From: a virus
IMG/VR virus record: IMGVR_UViG_2565956892_000004
DNA: 64,000 bases
Strand: one strand, 5' to 3'
Shown one piece after another: positions 4,652-59,369 of the stretch. The position numbers and the translations under genes are program-made. Positions within the stretch are counted from its first letter, which is position 1. Every line of letters begins with the position of its first letter. The notes under the pieces were generated by a model that was given only the letters and a program-made list of their open reading frames with translations, had not been told where the DNA came from and searched no databases.

Positions 4652-7600
4652 TTACTGGTTTGTTGAACGCAACATACCGCCTGGTCGTTTTTGCTTCACG
4701 ATCTCTTCCTGAACTAATGACTTGACTCTGTTAGACAAGTCTTTCCAGTTGGATTCGTTGTCTCCGCCTTTTGAGCTTTCTGTTGTTGTATCTCCATTGT
4801 TGTTGACTTCAATGTTGATGCTTACAACCGTGCCCCCACCAACTGGCGCGCCTCCGTTTAGAGCAACCCCTAAACGTCCTGAAGAATCACGTTGCAATGG
4901 CATGACCGCTTCTGGCCCAGCTTCTCCCATTACGCCGTTTGCAAATCCGCCACCTTTGGCAAACTTGAAGTAGGTTGGTGAATCGTAAATCCCATTGGTA
5001 AATGCCCCGCCGTTAGCAAAAGCATGTGTACCAGCGCCAAAAGCGCCACCGTTAGCAAAGAAAGAGGAAGCGATAGATGCAGCCGCACCAATCCAGCCAC
5101 CAGCACCTCCCATACCTCCGCCAGCTCCACCGCCACCGCTAAACAAACCACTAATGGCACTTGCTAGGCTGCTAAAAATTCCACCACCGCCAGCGCCTCC
5201 ACCGAACAAGCTGCTAAATGCACTGCCGATAGAACTCATTAAGCCACTGCCGTTGCTGAATAAATTAGAGAAGCCCGACTTGATTGTTGAGAAGATGCCG
5301 CCACCCGCTCCCTGTCCGAAGATGTCCATGAAGCCAGATTTGATCTGCGCAAACAGACCACCAAGCACTCCACCTTCTGCGCCTTCTAGCGAACCCCCAA
5401 CGCTTTTATCCATCAATCCGCCGTTGAGGAAGCTAGGTAAGTTAGGGTCCATACCGGCACCACCTTCAAACCCGCCGGCTAGATGGTCAAGGAAGCCACC
5501 AGAACCATTGACATAATCAATAGCCCCAACATTTTCAGGCCCTAGTACTGCGCTTGCGAAGGTTGTTAGGTCTTCACCACCAACTGATGATGCAACACCA
5601 CCAATGACACTAGAAATGCTTTGGCCACGGAGTGCTGCTGTGAGGTTTTGAATTGCTGCGGTGTTGGCATTTACCGCGATTGTGTTAGAAGCCTCCGCCG
5701 AGTCTGCTGAAGAGTCACTTGACGCCACCCCAGTCAAACCACGGATTTTGTTTAGCCACTTTCCAACAAATCCACTTTCATCAACGGCCTCGCCTTTGAG
5801 TAAGGATTTGCCCATTGAGTAAAGGTCGGTATTAGCGCCATCACCAAGCGCGCGTTTAGACATGTCTTGCCACACGTAGCGGAAAGCGCCTTGTGAAATT
5901 TTAGATGCGCTCTCAGACAAGATGCCGCTTAGGGAGACGTCATCGCCTTTCAGGAACTTATTAAAAATGCCATCCGACATTTCAACGCCAAGATCTGAAA
6001 TGGTTTGACGATATGTGGTTTCGTAATCCCGCCATTTGATCATTGCCTGATCATAGGTGGACATTAGCTCACGGCGGCGCTTTTCCTCTTGAATGCGGTA
6101 AAACTCTGAAAACTCTTCTTCAAAGTCTTTGCGTGTCTGCAATAACTTCGCATACAAGTCCTCTTGTTCTTGAGTGCGTTGCTGTACGGCGTCTAAAGAG
6201 GCGATCTGCTCGTCAAGTTGAGATTGAATCAACTTGTATGGCTTGATCAGGTCGTCATACTTTTTATTTACCGCTTGTTGGTTTCGCGCGTATTCATTGT
6301 CGACAAATACAGATGAATCTTCGGAGTTTGAGTTTTTCGCCTTTTTCGCGTAACCCAAATAATCTGAAGCTGTTTGCATTGCGATAGATGCATTTTTATT
6401 TGAAACGTAATTAGGGTCGCCGTATGCGAACGGATTCTTCGCTTCAAATCGCGCAAATTCACGACGTAATGCAGCCAAAGCATCACTTTGATTGTCTATG
6501 TCATTTGTTGCATCTTCGAGTGAGTCTTTGAAGTTCTCATTTGCATTTGCTGATTTAGAAACCGCAAATTGAACCGACTTATGCATGTCTTCAAGCTGAC
6601 GAACTTGAGCCATGTTTTTGAGAATCTGCTCAACTGAAATACCTGTTTTTGGATCTACGGCGTTCCAGTCAATATCCTCTTGCTTCCATACGCGCCCTTT
6701 TTGGTAGCTGCGGTTAGCAAATGGGCGATTCTTAGGGTTTCTGCCATCGTCAAAGTTGCCTTGCATCCACTCTTTGATAAATGAAAGCTTGGCGAGTTTG
6801 TAGTAATCTGGCGCGCCTTTTTCCAAAACTGAATCATCAAGAACATTCAGCTCCGCAATTTTAGCTAACAGACCTTCATTAACCCCCATGACTTTGCTTT
6901 CAAAGTCACGAGTTGAACCACCAGAGCCTCGATCTTTTTTAGGCTTGGTAGCAAGCGTTGGAGAGCTAATATCGTGATTACCAGTTCCCGGCATGAAGCC
7001 AGCTGGGGTAGCTGAAGTGTGGTTGTCTTTGTCAGTAGTTGCAGATGTTTTCTTCTGTTCGTCCGAAGTTAAGCCATAGTTCTTTTTGACATGCCCCATC
7101 GCTTTGTCGTATTGAACCTTAACTTCATAAGGCATACGTGGGGCTTTGACGTCAGTATGGCCATAACGAGCCCCAGATTGGCTGTACTCGTAAGCGTTAG
7201 CCCAGTTCTTGACGCTATCGGTAACTTTAACTCCCTTAACCGTATCGCCAACTTTTGCACCTTTAAGCAAATTCGCGTAACGCTTGGTTACTTCGGTTGA
7301 GATGTTATTAACCTTTTCTTGCTTTTCGCCTTCCGTAACTACATGAAGACGCTCTTGCTGCTCCTTAATCTGACGGCGCGTTTCTTGAATTTCAGCGCGG
7401 GCCTGTAATTGCTCACCTGTAAAGAACTCTTTAAAGGATAGCCAAGCGCCTTTAAGAGAGTTGATCATCAAATCCCAATTGGACACGATGTCATTGACAA
7501 TATTTTGGATGTGGGTGTTAATTTCTGTTCCGCCCACTTTGAGCGAGCCGATCCACTTACCAATCGCCCAACCAAATTGCCCCGCCAAGATGAGCCAACC

Positions 7601-24523: not shown

Positions 24524-25204
24524 TTACTTGAGTACGATGTGGGCTAAAGCGTCCCCTGCGTTAATCATTGGGTCGTCATCGTCATATCCTTGTGACTTAA
24601 TAACGGCCTGAATGCGATCAACTACTTTGTCCACTTGCTCCACAGGGACTTTGAAACGCATGATTTGGTGTGTTTGAACCGCCTTTCCTGAAGGCAATTC
24701 AATGTCTTCTTCTGGCAAATTGAGATCAGCTAGAGCATCTAGGGCTATAGTTGAATTAGAGAAAATCGTGTCGATGTCAGAAGAAGTGAAAGGCATGAAC
24801 GTAGCGAGGTCTTCGGGAGTACCAATGTCCGCAAAGATTTCTGCCAATTTTAGTGCGTCGTCAGAACCGTACCGCCCGTTATCGAGCAGTCCAATTTCTT
24901 TTGCTTCAACGTCGCTGATTTTTCCAAGATTGAAAGCGGGCACCTTGTCCACTTTCATTTGTTTTGCGACTAGAGCGCGATGTTCCCCTCCGATAATTTG
25001 GAGAGTGCCATTGTCGAGTTGACGCACAACAATTGGCTTGAACATCCCACGACGCTCGATGGATGCCTTTAACTTAGCTTCATTTTCTGGCGACACGATG
25101 TTTGAGTTCCACGGGTTAGGCTGCAACTGTGCAGGGTCAACCCATATGAGTTCGTGTGTCATAATTACTAGAAGATCAGTCAGTACTGACTTATACTTTG
25201 CCAT
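24524..25204 (-). CDS. ParB-like nuclease-domain protein
   Basis: IIGGEHRALVAKQM ParB-box-like motif. 226 aa. Confidence 0.5.
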   Translation of the reverse strand: MAKYKSVLTDLLVIMTHELIWVDPAQLQPNPWNSNIVSPENEAKLKASIERRGMFKPIVVRQLDNGTLQIIGGEHRALVAKQMKVDKVPAFNLGKISDVEAKEIGLLDNGRYGSDDALKLAEIFADIGTPEDLATFMPFTSSDIDTIFSNSTIALDALADLNLPEEDIELPSGKAVQTHQIMRFKVPVEQVDKVVDRIQAVIKSQGYDDDDPMINAGDALAHIVLK

Positions 25205-27755: not shown

Positions 27756-27814
27756 AGCATCGCACCTTACAAGCTACTGACCGCTTATGCAGTCAGTAGT
27801 GACTGACTTTTAAA

Positions 27815-29164: not shown

Positions 29165-29187
29165 TTGCAAGTTAATTTTGAACGCAA
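29165..29187. promoter_or_regulatory. Second copy of the AATTGACTTG-N3-CAAGT(C/T)AATT operator, upstream of the 108-aa gene
   Basis: One arm mismatch. Same position relative to a minus-strand gene start. Confidence 0.5.
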
Positions 29188-29232
29188 AATAATCACTCGT
29201 TAAAAATAAAAACGAAATTAGAGTCAAAATCA

Positions 29233-29496
29233 ATGAAAACCTTATGGCACAAGGGTTGGCGCGATTTTTGGGTGATCACGTCCGAGGCAATTCCTATCAA
29301 AAATTGGATTGCCGTGTGGCTCTTCCACGGCGGCACTGAGGCGAGTGGCAGCTCCTTATGCGAGCGTGCGGGGGTTTTAGGAAAATTCTATAGTTCAGCC
29401 GAGGCAACGCCGTTTTTCACTCTTGGATGGGGCGTGGATCTGCTTTGGATTGTCCTAGGCATGTTGCGTACGATAATAAAAAACCGCTCAAGTTAG
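29233..29496 (+). CDS. Hypothetical Trp-rich hydrophobic protein (87 aa); possible moron in a GC-richer island
   Basis: Plus-strand ORF divergent from the 108-aa gene. Local GC content visibly higher than the flanks. Weak RBS. Confidence 0.3.
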   Translation: MKTLWHKGWRDFWVITSEAIPIKNWIAVWLFHGGTEASGSSLCERAGVLGKFYSSAEATPFFTLGWGVDLLWIVLGMLRTIIKNRSS

Positions 29497-31084: not shown

Positions 31085-32742
31085 GATTAAACCCGTTGTT
31101 CGTTTCGATATGTATTGTGATATTTCATAGCTGGATATGCACCGCATGGCATAGGCAATATTCATCAATCGCCTATTCCGATTAACCGCATGTTTGTGCC
31201 GAGGACATGCCAGTTTTTGCGTGGAACATTCCGAGGATTCGCCGTGATATTTTGAATTGGCAGCTGTGAGGAATAGCCTCGGCGCGAAAATTTTTGTTCC
31301 ACTTGCCTGTGTGTATGTGTGATTTTTTAGGAAATATTTAGTTCAGGAAATTTGTTGGGATTTTTCATTTTCTCTATAAAGATTTTAAGTCATGACCATT
31401 CCGATGTGAAAACGCTAGAAGAAGTGAAAATGCCCCCCCTTCCCCCCCATAGCCTAAAAAGACATTTACATGAGAAGGAAGGGAGAAGGCATCTACTTCA
31501 TCCGCGCCACATCGGAATGCGAACATTCCGTAGTTGGTAAACGCCGACCCTAAGCAAAACGCACCCCTATCGAAAAGCAAGATGGGTCCACTGCCAGCAG
31601 TGAAAACTATCTTGGGTGCAATTGTAGTCAGTGCTTACTGATTTTTCAAGTGTAAGAAGTTTGGCTGAAACAATTTTTTAACAACAGAATCCACCGCTCC
31701 CTTCGGTCGCTCCATGCACATTGCACAACTCCTCTCTCTATGTGTTATTACTCTATAACCGCCTATACACATACTTCCTATTGTTCTTACTCTCCGTGTA
31801 TGATGAATTGTCCTTCTAGCTATACTTAGTGAAATCCTTATTGTGTATAGTGTTCAGTATGTACTTATCATTATCCGTGTAGTTGTTAGAGTTTTTGTCT
31901 GTATTGATTGATTGTTTTTAAGATCGTTTGCAATTGTTCTATTGTTTATCAGTTTGATTATTTAGATAGCATTATGAAAATATGCTGTTTGAGTTAAATT
32001 TGCTGTTCTATGGCTTAGTTGTAGATTAGTTGGATTGTTTGTCAGTAAGTTATCTATTCTTTAGTACGTTTTGGAATTTAGTTGTCTGGTGTTTGAATAG
32101 TAAGTCCGTATTATCATATTACCGTGTGTATGTATGGTCGTATGGTAATACGGTAATATGATATTTCAGCCTAGAGATAAATTGCCTCATTCTGTGCCTG
32201 ATAATTTGTTATAGCGTTCAGGTAAAAAATACAGCCTTAAAGTAAATTTGCTATTTGCGCATAGAATCGTTTTAGAGAGCGTTTTGCTTGTGTTTAGTAT
32301 GATTCATCATCTTAGTGATAAAAGCGTCTCTAACGCGCGTTTATAAGCGATTATAAGCGGTTTAAGTGAGAGTGTTTGCTTATCTGGTTTTAGCATGGTT
32401 CGGCGGGTAAGTAATGAATTAGTTACAAGTCAGTTTATTTGTATAAAAATACTTATAAATCAATGATGTATAATAATATCTCTATAACTGTCTGTTTTTG
32501 CTTATTTTAGATAAAAAAGAGCCAGCTCTAAAGAGGGGCGTAGAGCTGGCAAAAAGGTGACTTGTGAGACTTTTTTCTCTATCAATACACTCGAATATTC
32601 TATCTAAAGAGCTTCGTTGTCTTGATGTGAGTATTGTATAAATACCGAGTAGGATTGAGAAGGGGAGGCGTTTATATCGCCTGTCGTGTTTCCTATTAAA
32701 CTCATTATAATGATTGCATGTAACGTGAATTGAGTACGGCGT

Positions 32743-32811
32743 ATGTTGACCGCATTAATTGTTCTTGGAGCGATAGGGCTCATTTATTTGATGCTCAAAG
32801 CCATGAAGTGA
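32743..32811 (+). CDS. Possible 22-aa hydrophobic peptide (MLTALIVLGAIGLIYLMLKAMK)
   Basis: Small plus-strand ORF inside the ORF-free region, followed by a strong hairpin plus T-tract. Weak RBS. Confidence 0.2.
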   Translation: MLTALIVLGAIGLIYLMLKAMK

Positions 32812-32821
32812 TTAGACAAAA

Positions 32822-32848
32822 AGCCCTGAGCATTCAGGGCTATTATTT
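32822..32848 (+). terminator. Intrinsic terminator (AGCCCTGA-GCAT-TCAGGGCT + ATTATTT)
   Basis: 8-bp GC-rich stem and T-rich tail on the plus strand. Confidence 0.55.
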
Positions 32849-32930
32849 AGTTATTTTCTAATTGCGCAAATATCTGCTCAAAAATGATCGATTTCATAAA
32901 AAAAGTGCAAATATTTGCTCAATATTGGTC

Positions 32931-39925: not shown

Positions 39926-40109
39926 GCGCTTATCTCTTAATACGGTGAGATAAATATATAAAATACATCGCGGATTATAAACAGTCAGTACTGACTGATC
40001 AATTGGAATTGTGATTATTTATAAAAAAATGCGTTTTAAGCGCTTTTAGATAAAAAGGGTGTAATTTATTAACCGTGACGAACAAACGCGATATACGAGA
40101 AAATACGCG

Positions 40110-46195: not shown

Positions 46196-46218
46196 AAAGT
46201 ATAGTCAGTACTGACTGA
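46196..46218. promoter_or_regulatory. Copy of the conserved intergenic palindromic element (AAGTATAGTCAGTACTGACTGAT)
   Basis: Identical 23-mer also at 53901-53923 and 59347-59369. Core AGTCAGTACTGACT is a perfect 14-bp palindrome. Confidence 0.6.
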
Positions 46219-52979: not shown

Positions 52980-53836
52980 GCTGCTTCCTTAAATTGAAGT
53001 TCGATTAATTTTCGATGCTGTACAAAGCCATCGAAATTCCCATGTAGATGTTTGTTTTGCCATTCGCCTTTGAACAACTTCACTAACCACGGATTGCGAA
53101 TATCTGGTGTGGCTTGGTGTTCAAATGGAGAGGCATGTAGCGGCTCAGAACCCACTAGCTTTTCGCAAAGGCGAATATCCTTTTGGATGTCTGGCGCTTT
53201 ACCGTCATGCCGCAAGTAGGACACACGACAACAACGAGCCGCCGACACTTGCAACAAAATGTCGGTTGGATACTTTTCGCGTTCTTCATCCAGAATGTAC
53301 GGAAGGTGCCACTCATTAGGGGCCAATAAGACAGGTATTGATTTTTCTAGCGCAGCCTTCATTAATGCAGTTAAGGCAAAAATGGTTGGGTCCGCATCTT
53401 CGTGATGGCGTAGCTCAAAAAAGTTATCGAAGCTTGTCGCTGTTAAAACCACTTCAATAAATTGGAAAGGTTCTAAAATGCGATTAACAACTTGTTTGTG
53501 CAGACCAAGATCGTCAGCCATGAAACGTGCGGTATTTACTGCATTTTTAGCAGCTTCCAACCATGCTTCACGCGCAAGCTCCTTTTTGTACTCATTCACC
53601 TCTTCCCAAGCTTGCATACCAGCTTGGTTTTTACCCCAATGAACAGGCATTGCCGGATTTGCTTCAACTTGGTTAATCAACTTGATAACAGGGATGGCAC
53701 GCGAGCTTGAAGCATTGCGACTAAATACGCGGTGGGTCATCACTTCACTGTGAATAAAGCGCGGATAACGCAGCTGAAAGGTAGTAATTCGCTTACCTTC
53801 ATGGCTGCAAGAATCCGCAATAATTTTGACTTGCAT
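52976..53836 (-). CDS. thyX: Flavin-dependent thymidylate synthase
   Basis: ThyX signature THRVFSRNASSSR (RHR-x7-S-like). 286 aa. Confidence 0.7.
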   Translation of the reverse strand: MQVKIIADSCSHEGKRITTFQLRYPRFIHSEVMTHRVFSRNASSSRAIPVIKLINQVEANPAMPVHWGKNQAGMQAWEEVNEYKKELAREAWLEAAKNAVNTARFMADDLGLHKQVVNRILEPFQFIEVVLTATSFDNFFELRHHEDADPTIFALTALMKAALEKSIPVLLAPNEWHLPYILDEEREKYPTDILLQVSAARCCRVSYLRHDGKAPDIQKDIRLCEKLVGSEPLHASPFEHQATPDIRNPWLVKLFKGEWQNKHLHGNFDGFVQHRKLIELQFKEAA

Positions 53837-53900
53837 TGTTGGGTAACACTCACTTTTTAAAAAGAGGTGACTAATGCCACCCCTCGTTCTCTGAGCGTTA

Positions 53901-53923
53901 AAGTATAGTCAGTACTGACTGAT
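53901..53923. promoter_or_regulatory. Copy of the conserved intergenic palindromic element, upstream of thyX
   Basis: Identical 23-mer AAGTATAGTCAGTACTGACTGAT. Followed on the minus strand by a GGGGTG hairpin plus U-tract, then the thyX RBS. Confidence 0.6.
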
Positions 53924-54066
53924 CTTTTGGAGTTTATTTTCAGCAAAATAGGCTTATTTTTAGCCAGTTGTTTTATGTTTACGAATAAACAGTTAAAATG
54001 AACCATGACATTCGATCGACGCAATGAATTGACATTGGATCGACGTTTGTTAAAGAGGTTAATTAC

Positions 54067-54429
54067 ATGAAAAGATTTAGCGAGTTTTTAGCTGAGCGTA
54101 AAAACAAATCTAAAAGCGAAAGAATTTTAGAGCTTCAAAGAGTTTTTAAATCAACTCCTGAAGTTAGCGAAGAAGAGAAGGAACGCTTAGTTAAAAGATA
54201 TTTGTCACAACACGCCAGCATTAAAGAGGCGGTTGAAGTTATGACGTCTTTAAAGCTTTCTCAGGAGTATGCGAAGGTTATGGATGAAATTCATAACGAT
54301 GTGTTGGCTCGCGCGGCTGTAGCAATGGAGTTAAATGCATCTCCTGCTTCTGAGCGTTTGGTGCGCGGAGTTGCTCGCAGTGTTATTCGTGATCATCACG
54401 AGGAACTCGAACGTCTGGCTTATAAGTAA
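54067..54429 (+). CDS. Hypothetical protein upstream of the Doc-like gene; candidate antitoxin-like partner (120 aa)
   Basis: Stop overlaps the Doc-like start by 1 nt. No similarity to Phd noticed. Upstream region has GATCGACG direct repeats flanking a TTGACA. Confidence 0.45.
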   Translation: MKRFSEFLAERKNKSKSERILELQRVFKSTPEVSEEEKERLVKRYLSQHASIKEAVEVMTSLKLSQEYAKVMDEIHNDVLARAAVAMELNASPASERLVRGVARSVIRDHHEELERLAYK

Positions 54430-54848
54430 TGTATGATCCAGCGCCATTAATTAACGCAACGCTTGTTGAAGCGATTCATAGCGAGATTTTAGACAGCGTA
54501 GAAGGAGGCATGAGAGGTCCAACTAATTATGGTCTTCTCGAAAGTGCTTTAAATAGAGTTCAGCAGTATGTTTATTATGACGGTTTGAATGACATTTATG
54601 AGATTGCGGCATGGTATGGGATTTCTATTTCCACTCAACATGCATTCTCAGACGGCAATAAGCGAACTGGATTAACCGTAATGTTGACTTACCTTCGTAT
54701 GCAAGGCGTCTATATCGAGCCTAATCAAGATCTTGATGACATGATGGTTGATATTGTGCAAAGCGCACAATCAACAGAAGATGGAAATCATAAAGAGATT
54801 GCTGAGGCTTTAGCTGAGTATCTCTATCAGTATGTTCATCAGTTATAG
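54429..54848 (+). CDS. Doc/Fic-family protein (Doc toxin-like)
   Basis: Doc-type Fic motif QHAFSDGNKRTGL (HxFx(D/N)GNKR). N-terminal GG.RG...GLLESALNRVQ segment typical of Fic/Doc. Confidence 0.7.
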   Translation: MYDPAPLINATLVEAIHSEILDSVEGGMRGPTNYGLLESALNRVQQYVYYDGLNDIYEIAAWYGISISTQHAFSDGNKRTGLTVMLTYLRMQGVYIEPNQDLDDMMVDIVQSAQSTEDGNHKEIAEALAEYLYQYVHQL

Positions 54849-54871
54849 AAAAGGCGCATTAAGCGCCTTTT
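54849..54871. terminator. Bidirectional intrinsic terminator (AAAAGGCGC-ATTA-GCGCCTTTT)
   Basis: Perfect 9-bp stem flanked by A-tract and T-tract, between the convergent Doc-like and nrdB genes. Confidence 0.7.
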
Positions 54872-54874
54872 CTT

Positions 54875-55867
54875 TTACCATGCTAACGCACCGCCAGTTT
54901 TGTAGTCTGTTACGCGTGTTTCAAAGAAATTCTTTTCGGCTGTATTAGGCTTAGAGAACTCTTCTACCCACGGAAACGGATTTACCACACCAGGATAAGG
55001 CACAAATGGCGCTCGAATTTGAGCGGCGCGTTTATTAGCTAAATATTTAATATACAGTTCAATCGCTTCTGGATTGGTAACGCCTTGATGAATATATTGA
55101 CCCCAACTAATTTCCATTTTGGTAGATTCATCAATGATTTTAGCCGCATCTTCCCAAAATGAAGAAGTAAACACTTCAGGATTTTCAATACGCAATGTTT
55201 CAATCATGTTCAAGAACAGATCAAGATGCGTTCCTTCTTCATCACGTTGAATATAGCGAATCATATCCGCAGAACCCAACATCTTACCTTTGAAAGCAAG
55301 TAGATAAAATCCTAAGAATCCTGAGAAGAAATACTCGCCCTCAAGCATGACGTTAGAAATGCAAGCAAGGGCAAAACCACGCGCTGAGAACTGATCTCCC
55401 AAGATGCGTGATTGACGCAAAATAAACTCGTTTTTCTTCGCCAAAATACCATCGCGTTCAAATGTCATATAGACACTCATTGGGTCCGCTGAGACCGTTT
55501 CGATGAGTTTGGCATAAGACTCTACATGGTTGGCTTCCTCCCAAGCTTGACGGGACAAACATATGGCAACTTCCGGTGAGGTCACATGTTTTGCAATATT
55601 TTGGTTGATATTGTGAAATTGAATGCCGTCAAGGTTCGATAAAAACGCAAGGCTCTTGTCATACAATCGACGTTCCGCTTCGGTAAGCTTGTCTCGATAG
55701 CAAATGCCTTCATTACTCAAGTCGACCACTTCGGGGAACCAATTGTTATCCTTCATGCGTTGATGAATGTCTCTGGCCCATGTGTGTTTCATCGGGCTGA
55801 TCGCCATAAGGTCATCCTTTGGCCCTAAAATTAAGCGTCGATCATTAATTCGGTTTGCGTATGTCAT
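54875..55867 (-). CDS. nrdB: Ribonucleotide reductase class I small (beta) subunit
   Basis: Di-iron ligand motifs EEANHVESY, LEGEYFFSGF and RDEEGTHLD. FLSNLDG tyrosyl-radical region. Confidence 0.8.
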   Translation of the reverse strand: MTYANRINDRRLILGPKDDLMAISPMKHTWARDIHQRMKDNNWFPEVVDLSNEGICYRDKLTEAERRLYDKSLAFLSNLDGIQFHNINQNIAKHVTSPEVAICLSRQAWEEANHVESYAKLIETVSADPMSVYMTFERDGILAKKNEFILRQSRILGDQFSARGFALACISNVMLEGEYFFSGFLGFYLLAFKGKMLGSADMIRYIQRDEEGTHLDLFLNMIETLRIENPEVFTSSFWEDAAKIIDESTKMEISWGQYIHQGVTNPEAIELYIKYLANKRAAQIRAPFVPYPGVVNPFPWVEEFSKPNTAEKNFFETRVTDYKTGGALAW

Positions 55868-59346: not shown

Positions 59347-59369
59347 TAGTATAGTCAGTACTGACTGAT
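59347..59369. promoter_or_regulatory. Copy of the conserved intergenic palindromic element, upstream of RuvC-like gene
   Basis: Identical 23-mer AAGTATAGTCAGTACTGACTGAT. Confidence 0.6.

Follow-up and report, generated by a model that had tools for sequence, protein, structure and literature searches.

The locus described here raises the question of what a toxin-like gene pair is doing among the nucleotide-metabolism genes of a phage, and in particular whether it serves to hold the element in its host or to subdue that host during lytic growth. The pair lies between thyX and nrdB in a 64,000-nt stretch of IMG/VR virus record IMGVR_UViG_2565956892_000004 (the whole of which is referred to below as the window) and consists of an open reading frame (ORF) for a 120-aa protein, ORF120 (54067..54429, plus strand), followed directly by a gene for a 139-aa Doc-family protein (54429..54848, plus strand). 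Based on the analyses reported here, the pair is probably a Doc-class type II toxin–antitoxin (TA) operon, present as a self-contained insertion in an Acinetobacter baumannii phage-plasmid, with thyX and nrdB on either side, in which ORF120 would be the antitoxin.

The downstream gene is, as judged by profile and motif matches, a Doc-subfamily Fic protein. Its product (WP_000272207.1) matched the Pfam Fic/DOC family PF02661 (E = 2.8e-14, 54.2 bits against a cut-off of 24), the NCBIfam family TIGR01550 DOC_P1 (66 bits, cut-off 38.65) and phrog_577 "Doc-like toxin" (E = 1.8e-38), and its name in the PGAP annotation is "type II toxin-antitoxin system death-on-curing family toxin". The closest solved structures were chains of P1 Doc (3k33, 3dd7 and 3kh2; E about 1e-13), and P1 Doc itself was 37% identical over 82 residues, with its HIFNDANKRT aligned with HAFSDGNKRT. 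The latter catalytic motif (residues 71-80; 54639..54668, plus strand, read from the sequence) and the segment GGMRGPTNYGLLESAL are both present where an earlier reading of this DNA, the original prediction, had placed them in a 139-aa plus-strand Doc/Fic ORF, and the match to PF02661, which that prediction had proposed as a check, lay well above the cut-off. The motif follows the Doc-type active-site pattern HxFx(D/N)(A/G)NKR with Lys in the second-Gly position, a substitution that marks the kinase-type Doc branch according to Castro-Roa et al. (2013), as cited in PMC10440598. H71, F73, G76, N77, K78 and R79 did not vary among 35 aligned homologues, and the ratio of nonsynonymous to synonymous substitutions (dN/dS, Nei-Gojobori) for the gene was 0.03-0.09, a range that also held between two chromosomal copies. 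The protein is very acidic, with an isoelectric point (pI) of 4.3, and belongs to a distinct 139-aa clade that is 47-50% identical to the 128-aa Docs.

The upstream protein, ORF120 (WP_000819780.1, annotated as "hypothetical protein"), always accompanies Doc, and the two ORFs are joined by TAATG, a 1-nt overlap; an overlap of 1 or 4 nt is kept in all relatives of the pair. That this partner would be unlike Phd was correctly anticipated, since PF02604 (Phd/YefM) gave no match to it at E <= 1 in a library that does detect Phd in other Doc partners, and hhalign against P1 Phd returned a probability of 0.1%. By these measures ORF120 is outside the Phd/YefM family. Searches of Pfam, NCBIfam, PADLOC and PDB sequences with ORF120 gave no significant match, and nothing significant was found in the same four collections with the ORF120 profile, the 59-aa partner described below, or the queries P0129, P0007 and P0008. 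In PHROGs it matched phrog_8906 alone, to which no function is assigned there. A word-indexed search of 5.8 billion proteins yielded eight clusters of the long form, all from Acinetobacter, and four proteins matched the ORF120 family in an exhaustive profile search of 1.84 billion representatives. ORF120 is basic (pI 8.9), and its AlphaFold2 (AF2) model is all-helical with a kinked C-terminal helix, at low confidence (predicted local distance difference test [pLDDT] score 71.7, predicted template modelling score 0.39); Foldseek of that model against the PDB returned nothing with E < 2.

Conservation within ORF120 is very uneven. In the family alignment the first ~12 residues are conserved, residues ~13-88 (54103..54330, plus strand), a fast-evolving helical middle, are unrecognisably diverged, with 22-28 residues lost in two members, and the C-terminal tail, residues 89-120 (LNASPASERLVRGVARSVIRDHHEELERLAYK; 54331..54426, plus strand), which is predicted to form a Doc-neutralising helix, is again conserved. 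Within that tail residues 92-120 (SPASERLVRGVARSVIRDHHEELERLAYK) are essentially invariant, with residues 92-101 and most of 103-120 the same in all homologues. In a sliding-window comparison the middle was the least conserved part of 7 kb, its nucleotide identity dropping to 14-65% versus 75-97% for the backbone. By the Nei-Gojobori method dN/dS was 0-0.055 for the tail (dS 0.3-0.6) and 0.23-0.42 for the head. The low dN/dS of both genes indicates that both encode selected proteins, and that the tail is the critical part of ORF120. A particular case is the relative L012, in which the middle of the putative antitoxin gene (6040-6190, against window 54080-54330) is 14-48% identical and 26 codons shorter, while its Doc gene is 94-100% identical in DNA to that of the window; the limitation of the divergence to the middle indicates recombinational replacement of that segment.

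The upstream partner had been described as unrelated, and it is this claim that the tail qualifies: it belongs to a family of small proteins linked to Doc, and is weakly similar to the ends of Doc partners of the MazE and Phd types. In A. baumannii a prophage Doc of 128 aa, 47% identical, is preceded by a 59-aa partner ending in ...KRVIRQHKDEIQELAYK, and a profile built from four such tails retrieved 67 clusters of 57-78-aa "hypothetical" proteins without a Pfam domain, to which we refer by the LAYK in which the tail ends. When the 59-aa family was compared with the ORF120 family by hhalign, the last 39 residues aligned with a probability of 96% (E = 4.2e-9), and the N-termini are also alike (MKRLKDF versus MKRFSEF), so that ORF120 looks, from these alignments, like the 59-aa protein plus a variable insertion of ~60 residues. 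AF2 on 66 sequences of the small family (pLDDT 83.5) gave one long C-terminal helix, residues 32-58 at pLDDT 90-95, with an extended N-terminal half. The possibility that the tail is a ribbon-helix-helix DNA-binding domain was considered and rejected, since the AF2 model has no beta-alpha-alpha unit and there was no Pfam match of that type.

The genomic setting of the small genes was surveyed at 48 loci, from many Acinetobacter species, Neisseria, Wohlfahrtiimonas and four viral contigs. In 33 of the 48 the small gene is followed directly by Doc with a 4-nt overlap; Doc is truncated in one further locus, and another locus is cut by the contig end. Seven Neisseria loci hold an orphan small gene between ABC-permease genes, at a place where sister strains keep Doc, and small genes left behind where the toxin has been lost fit the identity of an antitoxin. 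The Neisseria comparison concerns a single site (L049, L050, L052, L058 and L061-L063 versus L051 and L053-L056), at which some strains have the small LAYK gene plus Doc and others the small gene alone. Contexts of the LAYK family other than Doc were seen in L024 (418-2680), L017 (956-3213), L030 and L015 (3001-4405).

The reverse survey, of the upstream partners of 80 diverse Doc genes from viral contigs, identified partners of the MazE/AbrB type (PF04014), the Phd/YefM type (PF02604) or tiny proteins of 43-63 aa, and nearly all of these end in a similar helix, ...ΦΦxxxxxxΦxxLA(K/E/YK). It has been demonstrated by experiment that two C-terminal helices ("Phd-C") neutralise Doc and are still active when carried on another antitoxin scaffold (PMC10440598). 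Taken with the conservation of the tail, the sequence comparisons make it most likely that ORF120 neutralises Doc via its tail. In six IMG/VR contigs (L077, L078, L080, L085, L086 and L090) the Doc genes, of 121-126 aa, have upstream antitoxin candidates of only 43-44 aa, for example MKKQNTQPVKIELNGEAGKRVALSAAKRIIKTHNKEIKALAYK; such proteins amount to little more than a tail and may represent minimal Doc antitoxins made of a single element.

The nature of the replicon bears directly on the role of the pair. In a plasmid collection 27 circular A. baumannii plasmids of 104.6-113.7 kb, all typed as non-mobilisable, were 99.9-100% identical to the window across the cassette locus. One of them, NZ_CP027608.1, carries in its PGAP annotation a RepB-family initiator and two ParB genes, the phage genes for terminase, portal, major capsid, tail proteins and holin, and further genes for ArdA, DnaE, NrdAB, ThyX and Dut. 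The host element is thus a circular plasmid of ~110 kb with replication and partition genes together with the complete structural and lysis genes of a phage, that is, a temperate phage maintained as a low-copy plasmid (~107 kb) with a P1-like lifestyle, and not a lytic phage. Pfeifer et al. (PMC7969092) have described an AB group of Acinetobacter phage-plasmids, about 110 kb in size, and the element fits this group. When a phage collection was searched by megablast and tblastn, no close relatives appeared; ORF120 was unmatched and Doc was matched at <=44% identity. The element has been deposited as plasmids and not as phages.

Comparison among related elements indicates that the pair is inherited, and has moved, as a unit. 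It is present at the identical site in four diverged relatives, 99-110 kb in length, of which one is an IMG/VR contig and three are assembly contigs, in the order thyX, pair, nrdB, as the original prediction had suggested should be checked. Conversely, in ~115 other Acinetobacter plasmids of ~110 kb (pABTJ2-type), which share nrdB at only 72% nucleotide identity, the next minus-strand gene follows directly after nrdB, the cassette is absent from the site, and no ORF120 copy was found anywhere in these plasmids. As this subgroup has nrdB without the cassette, the cassette is an insertion confined to a single subgroup. The pair also occurs alone in chromosomes: in A. oleivorans, A. lactucae and one metagenome contig it lies between an Mpo1-like gene and thiE (L007 9841-11090, L013 5864-7106 and L009 4380-5629). 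The homologous chromosomal segment is 1.26 kb in length and corresponds to window 53905-55163, extending from a palindrome on the thyX side to ~290 nt of the dead 3' end of nrdB, with the promoter region, both ORFs and the terminator intact. Survival of the two-gene unit alone from a fragment of the phage-plasmid is what would be expected of a selfish TA module that is hard to lose.

The cassette is also set apart by its own DNA signals. In the PGAP annotation of an identical plasmid the two genes are the only ones on the plus strand within >40 kb, which bears out their earlier description as the sole plus-strand island of the region. An alignment of seven loci, chromosomal copies included, showed a near-invariant non-coding stretch (53930..54005, plus strand), the probable site of a promoter for the cassette, and ~170 bp upstream of the repeats described next are nearly invariant in all copies, again including the chromosomal ones. 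The best candidate for the TA promoter is TTTATG-16 nt-TAAAAT, with the putative -10 at 53994-53999; it was not called by a consensus promoter scan. Transcription from there would take in both 16-nt repeats within its first 40 bases, where an operator could plausibly lie. These direct repeats, TGACATT(C/G)GATCGACG (54006..54045, plus strand), stand immediately before the ribosome-binding site, spaced 24 nt apart, and the two copies are TGACATTCGATCGACG at 54006-54021 and TGACATTGGATCGACG at 54030-54045. With two mismatches allowed the motif is confined to this locus within the window, save for one poor match in nrdB. Every phage-plasmid relative and one chromosomal copy keep the repeat halves TGACA and TCGACG, and L013 (A. 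lactucae) has lost precisely one repeat unit.

The original prediction had placed a divergent promoter region here, with a TTGACA flanked by two short direct repeats. Both elements were found, the short repeat (GATCGACG, at 54014-54021 and 54038-54045) being in reality the end of the 16-nt unit and the TTGACA lying at 54029-34, but the reading of TTGACA as a -35 box was rejected: it has no acceptable -10 (the best being TAAAGA), the promoter scan was blank there, and a start at that position would remove the Shine-Dalgarno sequence of ORF120, AAAGAGG (54052..54058, plus strand), which lies 8 nt upstream of the ATG at 54067 and is conserved in the alignment. The TTGACA is probably part of the repeat, and so of a possible operator. 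We hypothesise that ORF120 may autoregulate the operon through these repeats. A minus-strand ORF of 55 aa (53857-54024) was considered and rejected, as a 1-nt indel between relatives breaks its frame. Downstream, the predicted bidirectional terminator was confirmed as a hairpin at 54847..54873, an 11-bp GC-rich stem between an A-run and a T-run with a folding energy of -19.7 kcal/mol versus -7.2 ± 2.1 for shuffles (z = -5.96); it is kept in the chromosomal copies, parts the cassette from the convergent nrdB and, by its structure, can serve both as terminator.

The sequence analyses themselves show the anatomy of the genes, the family to which Doc belongs, the linkage of the pair, and its conservation and selection. 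From the organisation of the pair and its homologies we infer toxicity of Doc, neutralisation by the tail, lability of the antitoxin, autoregulation and a role in addiction. If it acts like its homologue P1 Doc, the toxin would halt translation by phosphorylating EF-Tu. The conserved C-terminal amphipathic helix of ORF120, ~30-40 residues in length, would bind Doc and block its active site, and the variable N-terminal ~80 residues would be an accessory part, possibly with a role in dimerisation, in DNA binding at the repeats or in sensing. During plasmid-state lysogeny both proteins would be produced and their complex would be inert; upon loss of the replicon the labile ORF120 would decay and Doc would arrest growth, with the result that the 107-kb plasmid-prophage is stabilised. 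A low-copy plasmid-prophage with RepB and ParB is the situation of P1, and plasmid-style addiction is therefore a natural role for the pair. We lean, by a little, towards addiction as its main role; phage defence is the main alternative, and the two roles are compatible.

The defence alternative, that the cassette acts mainly in abortive infection, with infection displacing ORF120, the freed Doc halting translation and the variable region acting as a sensor, is in our judgement unlikely to be the main explanation, although a number of observations speak for it. Doc matches the PADLOC candidate families PDC-M59B (E = 1.5e-7), PDC-S23 and SoFic; relatives of the small partner occur in prophages and have GmrSD, HicB, Arc and anti-repressor genes among their neighbours; the ORF120 middle, as the most divergent stretch in 7 kb, has been replaced and deleted; and a sensor function has been suggested for an accessory domain of an antitoxin (PMC10440598). 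However, the PADLOC matches are to generic Fic domains of candidate systems, the dN/dS of 0.23-0.42 in the variable region indicates relaxed constraint and not positive selection, and a low-copy plasmid-prophage is the classic setting for addiction, with which a defensive role would not conflict. A more specific and more doubtful proposal along similar lines is that the LAYK helix, of ~40 residues, is a stand-alone portable Doc-neutralising module distinct from that of Phd, with the N-terminal extension as a sensor or specificity domain that makes Doc responsive to a trigger. If that were true, activation could come, for example, from competing phages or related plasmids, and the repeated replacement and deletion of the ORF120 N-terminal region between near-identical cassettes would be explained.

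The preference of the original prediction, which had taken the element for an ordinary phage, was for host shut-off or anti-defence over plasmid-style addiction, and it finds no support here, given that the replicon is a RepB/ParB plasmid-prophage and the pair is built like phd-doc. That Doc is a weapon of lytic growth, or one against host defences, with ORF120 as its regulator or chaperone would be consistent with the position of the cassette among nucleotide-metabolism and replication genes that are probably expressed early in the lytic cycle, and with the lack of a known antitoxin domain in ORF120. We nevertheless consider it very improbable, as the cassette runs counter to the lytic operons and has a control region and a terminator to itself, and its toxin and partner are translationally coupled in the style of a TA operon. 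In addition, the pair remains intact under purifying selection in chromosomes without the surrounding phage genes, related small genes are paired with Doc in many settings that are not lytic and persist as orphans after its loss, and the larger pABTJ2-type subgroup does without the cassette at this site, ORF120 not having been found in those plasmids. Least probable of all is that the pair is a decayed or inert passenger, in which Doc is catalytically dead or ORF120 is non-functional: the ORF120 middle does tolerate large deletions and replacement, but every residue of the catalytic motif is intact and invariant, dN/dS of both genes is far below 1 at dS of 0.3-1.6, and every copy retains the overlap, the ribosome-binding site and the terminator.

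A number of observations weigh against the interpretation of the pair as an addiction operon neutralised through a Phd-like tail. The relationship of the ORF120 tail to other Doc-partner tails was assessed with a profile of 24 tails of MazE- and Phd-like partners, LAYK members excluded. In favour of a link, its alignment to the ORF120 C-terminus (E = 3.3e-4) and to the 59-aa family (E = 3.5e-5) was in register, and as a hidden Markov model it ranked ORF120 first among 646 stop-to-stop segments of the window. The matches are weak, with hhalign probabilities of 38% for ORF120 and 72% for the 59-aa family and E = 0.053 for the hidden Markov model, and P1 Phd matched neither of the two profiles. 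Homology of the ORF120 tail to Phd-C is no more than suggested by these alignments. Moreover, the LAYK tails are basic (the 59-aa protein has a pI of 10.1) and face an acidic Doc, whereas Phd is acidic (pI 5.1), and the binding mode may therefore differ. Some LAYK members of 70-72 aa immediately follow a GmrSD-type restriction gene, at loci where Doc is missing or truncated, and one lies ahead of a 268-aa protein and a HEPN-like 129-aa protein; such neighbours imply that the conserved helix may serve a role besides, or instead of, the binding of Doc. As regards autoregulation, no DNA-binding fold was recognisable in ORF120 by Pfam, the AF2 model or Foldseek, and no shared operator motif was found upstream of the 59-aa-type cassettes. 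Lastly, the AB-type plasmids hold partition genes and a HicA-family toxin gene besides Doc, which bears on the share of Doc in their stability.

Outside the cassette, its left border coincides with a feature of the wider replicon. The motif TATAGTCAGTACTGACTGA, a perfect palindrome at 53904..53922 (no strand assigned), lies in the divergent control region on the thyX side and forms the left edge of the 1.26-kb chromosomal fragment. Its core is AGTCAGTACTGACT, and there are seven copies in the window versus 0.01 expected: 25176-25194 (minus strand), 27788-27806, 31623-31641, 39980-39998, 46200-46218, 53904-53922 and 59350-59368. The four best copies are located 45-90 nt upstream of the starts of minus-strand genes, and the motif, read on the minus strand, shares bases with a TATACT that resembles a -10 box. 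From this distribution it looks like a dispersed operator or promoter element of the early or replication operons of the phage-plasmid, outside the TA unit, comparable to the scattered C1 operators of P1. One degenerate copy falls within a region of ~1.7 kb (window 31170-32930) that has no ORF of at least 90 aa, no coding sequence in the plasmid record, and neither Rfam families nor tRNAs.

Also on the thyX side, downstream of the palindrome and the putative promoter, the minus strand holds a terminator-like hairpin, GAGGGGUGGC-AUUA-GUCACCUC followed by UUUUU (window 53856-53885), ~20 nt upstream of the thyX start at 53836. It is kept, with loop changes, in the phage-plasmid relatives and has no Rfam match, and it could be an attenuator or antitermination target of the thyX-dut operon. 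Across the locus and the window Rfam returned nothing reaching threshold, and no tRNAs were detected. The HicA-family gene mentioned above is located at 29172-29384 of NZ_CP027608.1, ~220 nt past the right end of the window and beside a cell-wall hydrolase gene; no adjoining HicB is annotated in the PLSDB table, and the gene may be a second TA-like element on the replicon.

What is new here is modest, namely an unannotated family of probable antitoxins with a conserved helix ending in LAYK, of which ORF120 is a lineage-specific, fast-evolving expansion, in a TA module that is otherwise conventional. A literature search found no paper on this cassette. Phage-plasmids of ~107 kb are in circulation among clinical A. 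baumannii, and a functional Doc module would be an obvious factor in their stability and possibly in phage exclusion. Recognition of ORF120 and its 43-78-aa relatives as a family of Doc antitoxins would improve the annotation of TA systems in Acinetobacter, Neisseria and their phages, and would, if correct, provide a natural example for a model of antitoxin evolution in which a portable neutralising tail is combined with an exchangeable accessory domain.

The phd-doc system of phage P1 is the prototype addiction module, and the cassette resembles it in having a Doc-family toxin with the HxFxDxNKR motif, a small partner gene just upstream, stop and start codons that overlap by 1 nt, repeated sites in the promoter region, and a host element that is a temperate phage kept as a low-copy plasmid. 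It differs in that ORF120 is without a Phd/YefM domain and is predicted to be all-helical, at 120 aa and pI 8.9 versus 73 aa and pI 5.1 for Phd, in that the upstream repeats are direct and not palindromic, and in its Doc, which is 139 aa in length with a pI of 4.3. The FicT–FicA and YhfG–Fic systems likewise pair a Fic-fold toxin with a small helical upstream partner; unlike them, the toxin here has the Doc kinase motif, with K for the second G, and not the AMPylase motif. The inhibitory motif of class I Fic antitoxins is (S/T)xxxE(G/N), to which the SPASE of ORF120 is superficially similar, but a FicA-type inhibitor was rejected because S92-P-A-S-E96 is followed by R and the pattern is missing in the homologous 59-aa partners (DDATKR).

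Modular Doc antitoxins are represented by PanA_Phd-C:Doc of Corynebacterium doosanense (PMC10440598) and by MazE–Doc composites such as TasA–TasB (see also PMC1626090). As in the Phd-C antitoxins, ORF120 would carry a short C-terminal helical element, the proposed neutraliser of Doc, on an unrelated N-terminal part, and its tail is in register with those of MazE- and Phd-type partners (...ΦΦxxxxxxΦxxLA...; statistically weak). Unlike in those antitoxins, the N-terminal part is not Panacea, MazE/AbrB or Phd, and the tail ends in an invariant LAYK. With the 43-78-aa proteins upstream of 121-130-aa Docs in prophages of Acinetobacter, Neisseria and Wohlfahrtiimonas, ORF120 shares a homologous tail, the same position and overlapping stop and start codons, and what distinguishes the long form from all of these is the variable helical insertion of ~60 residues between its conserved ends.

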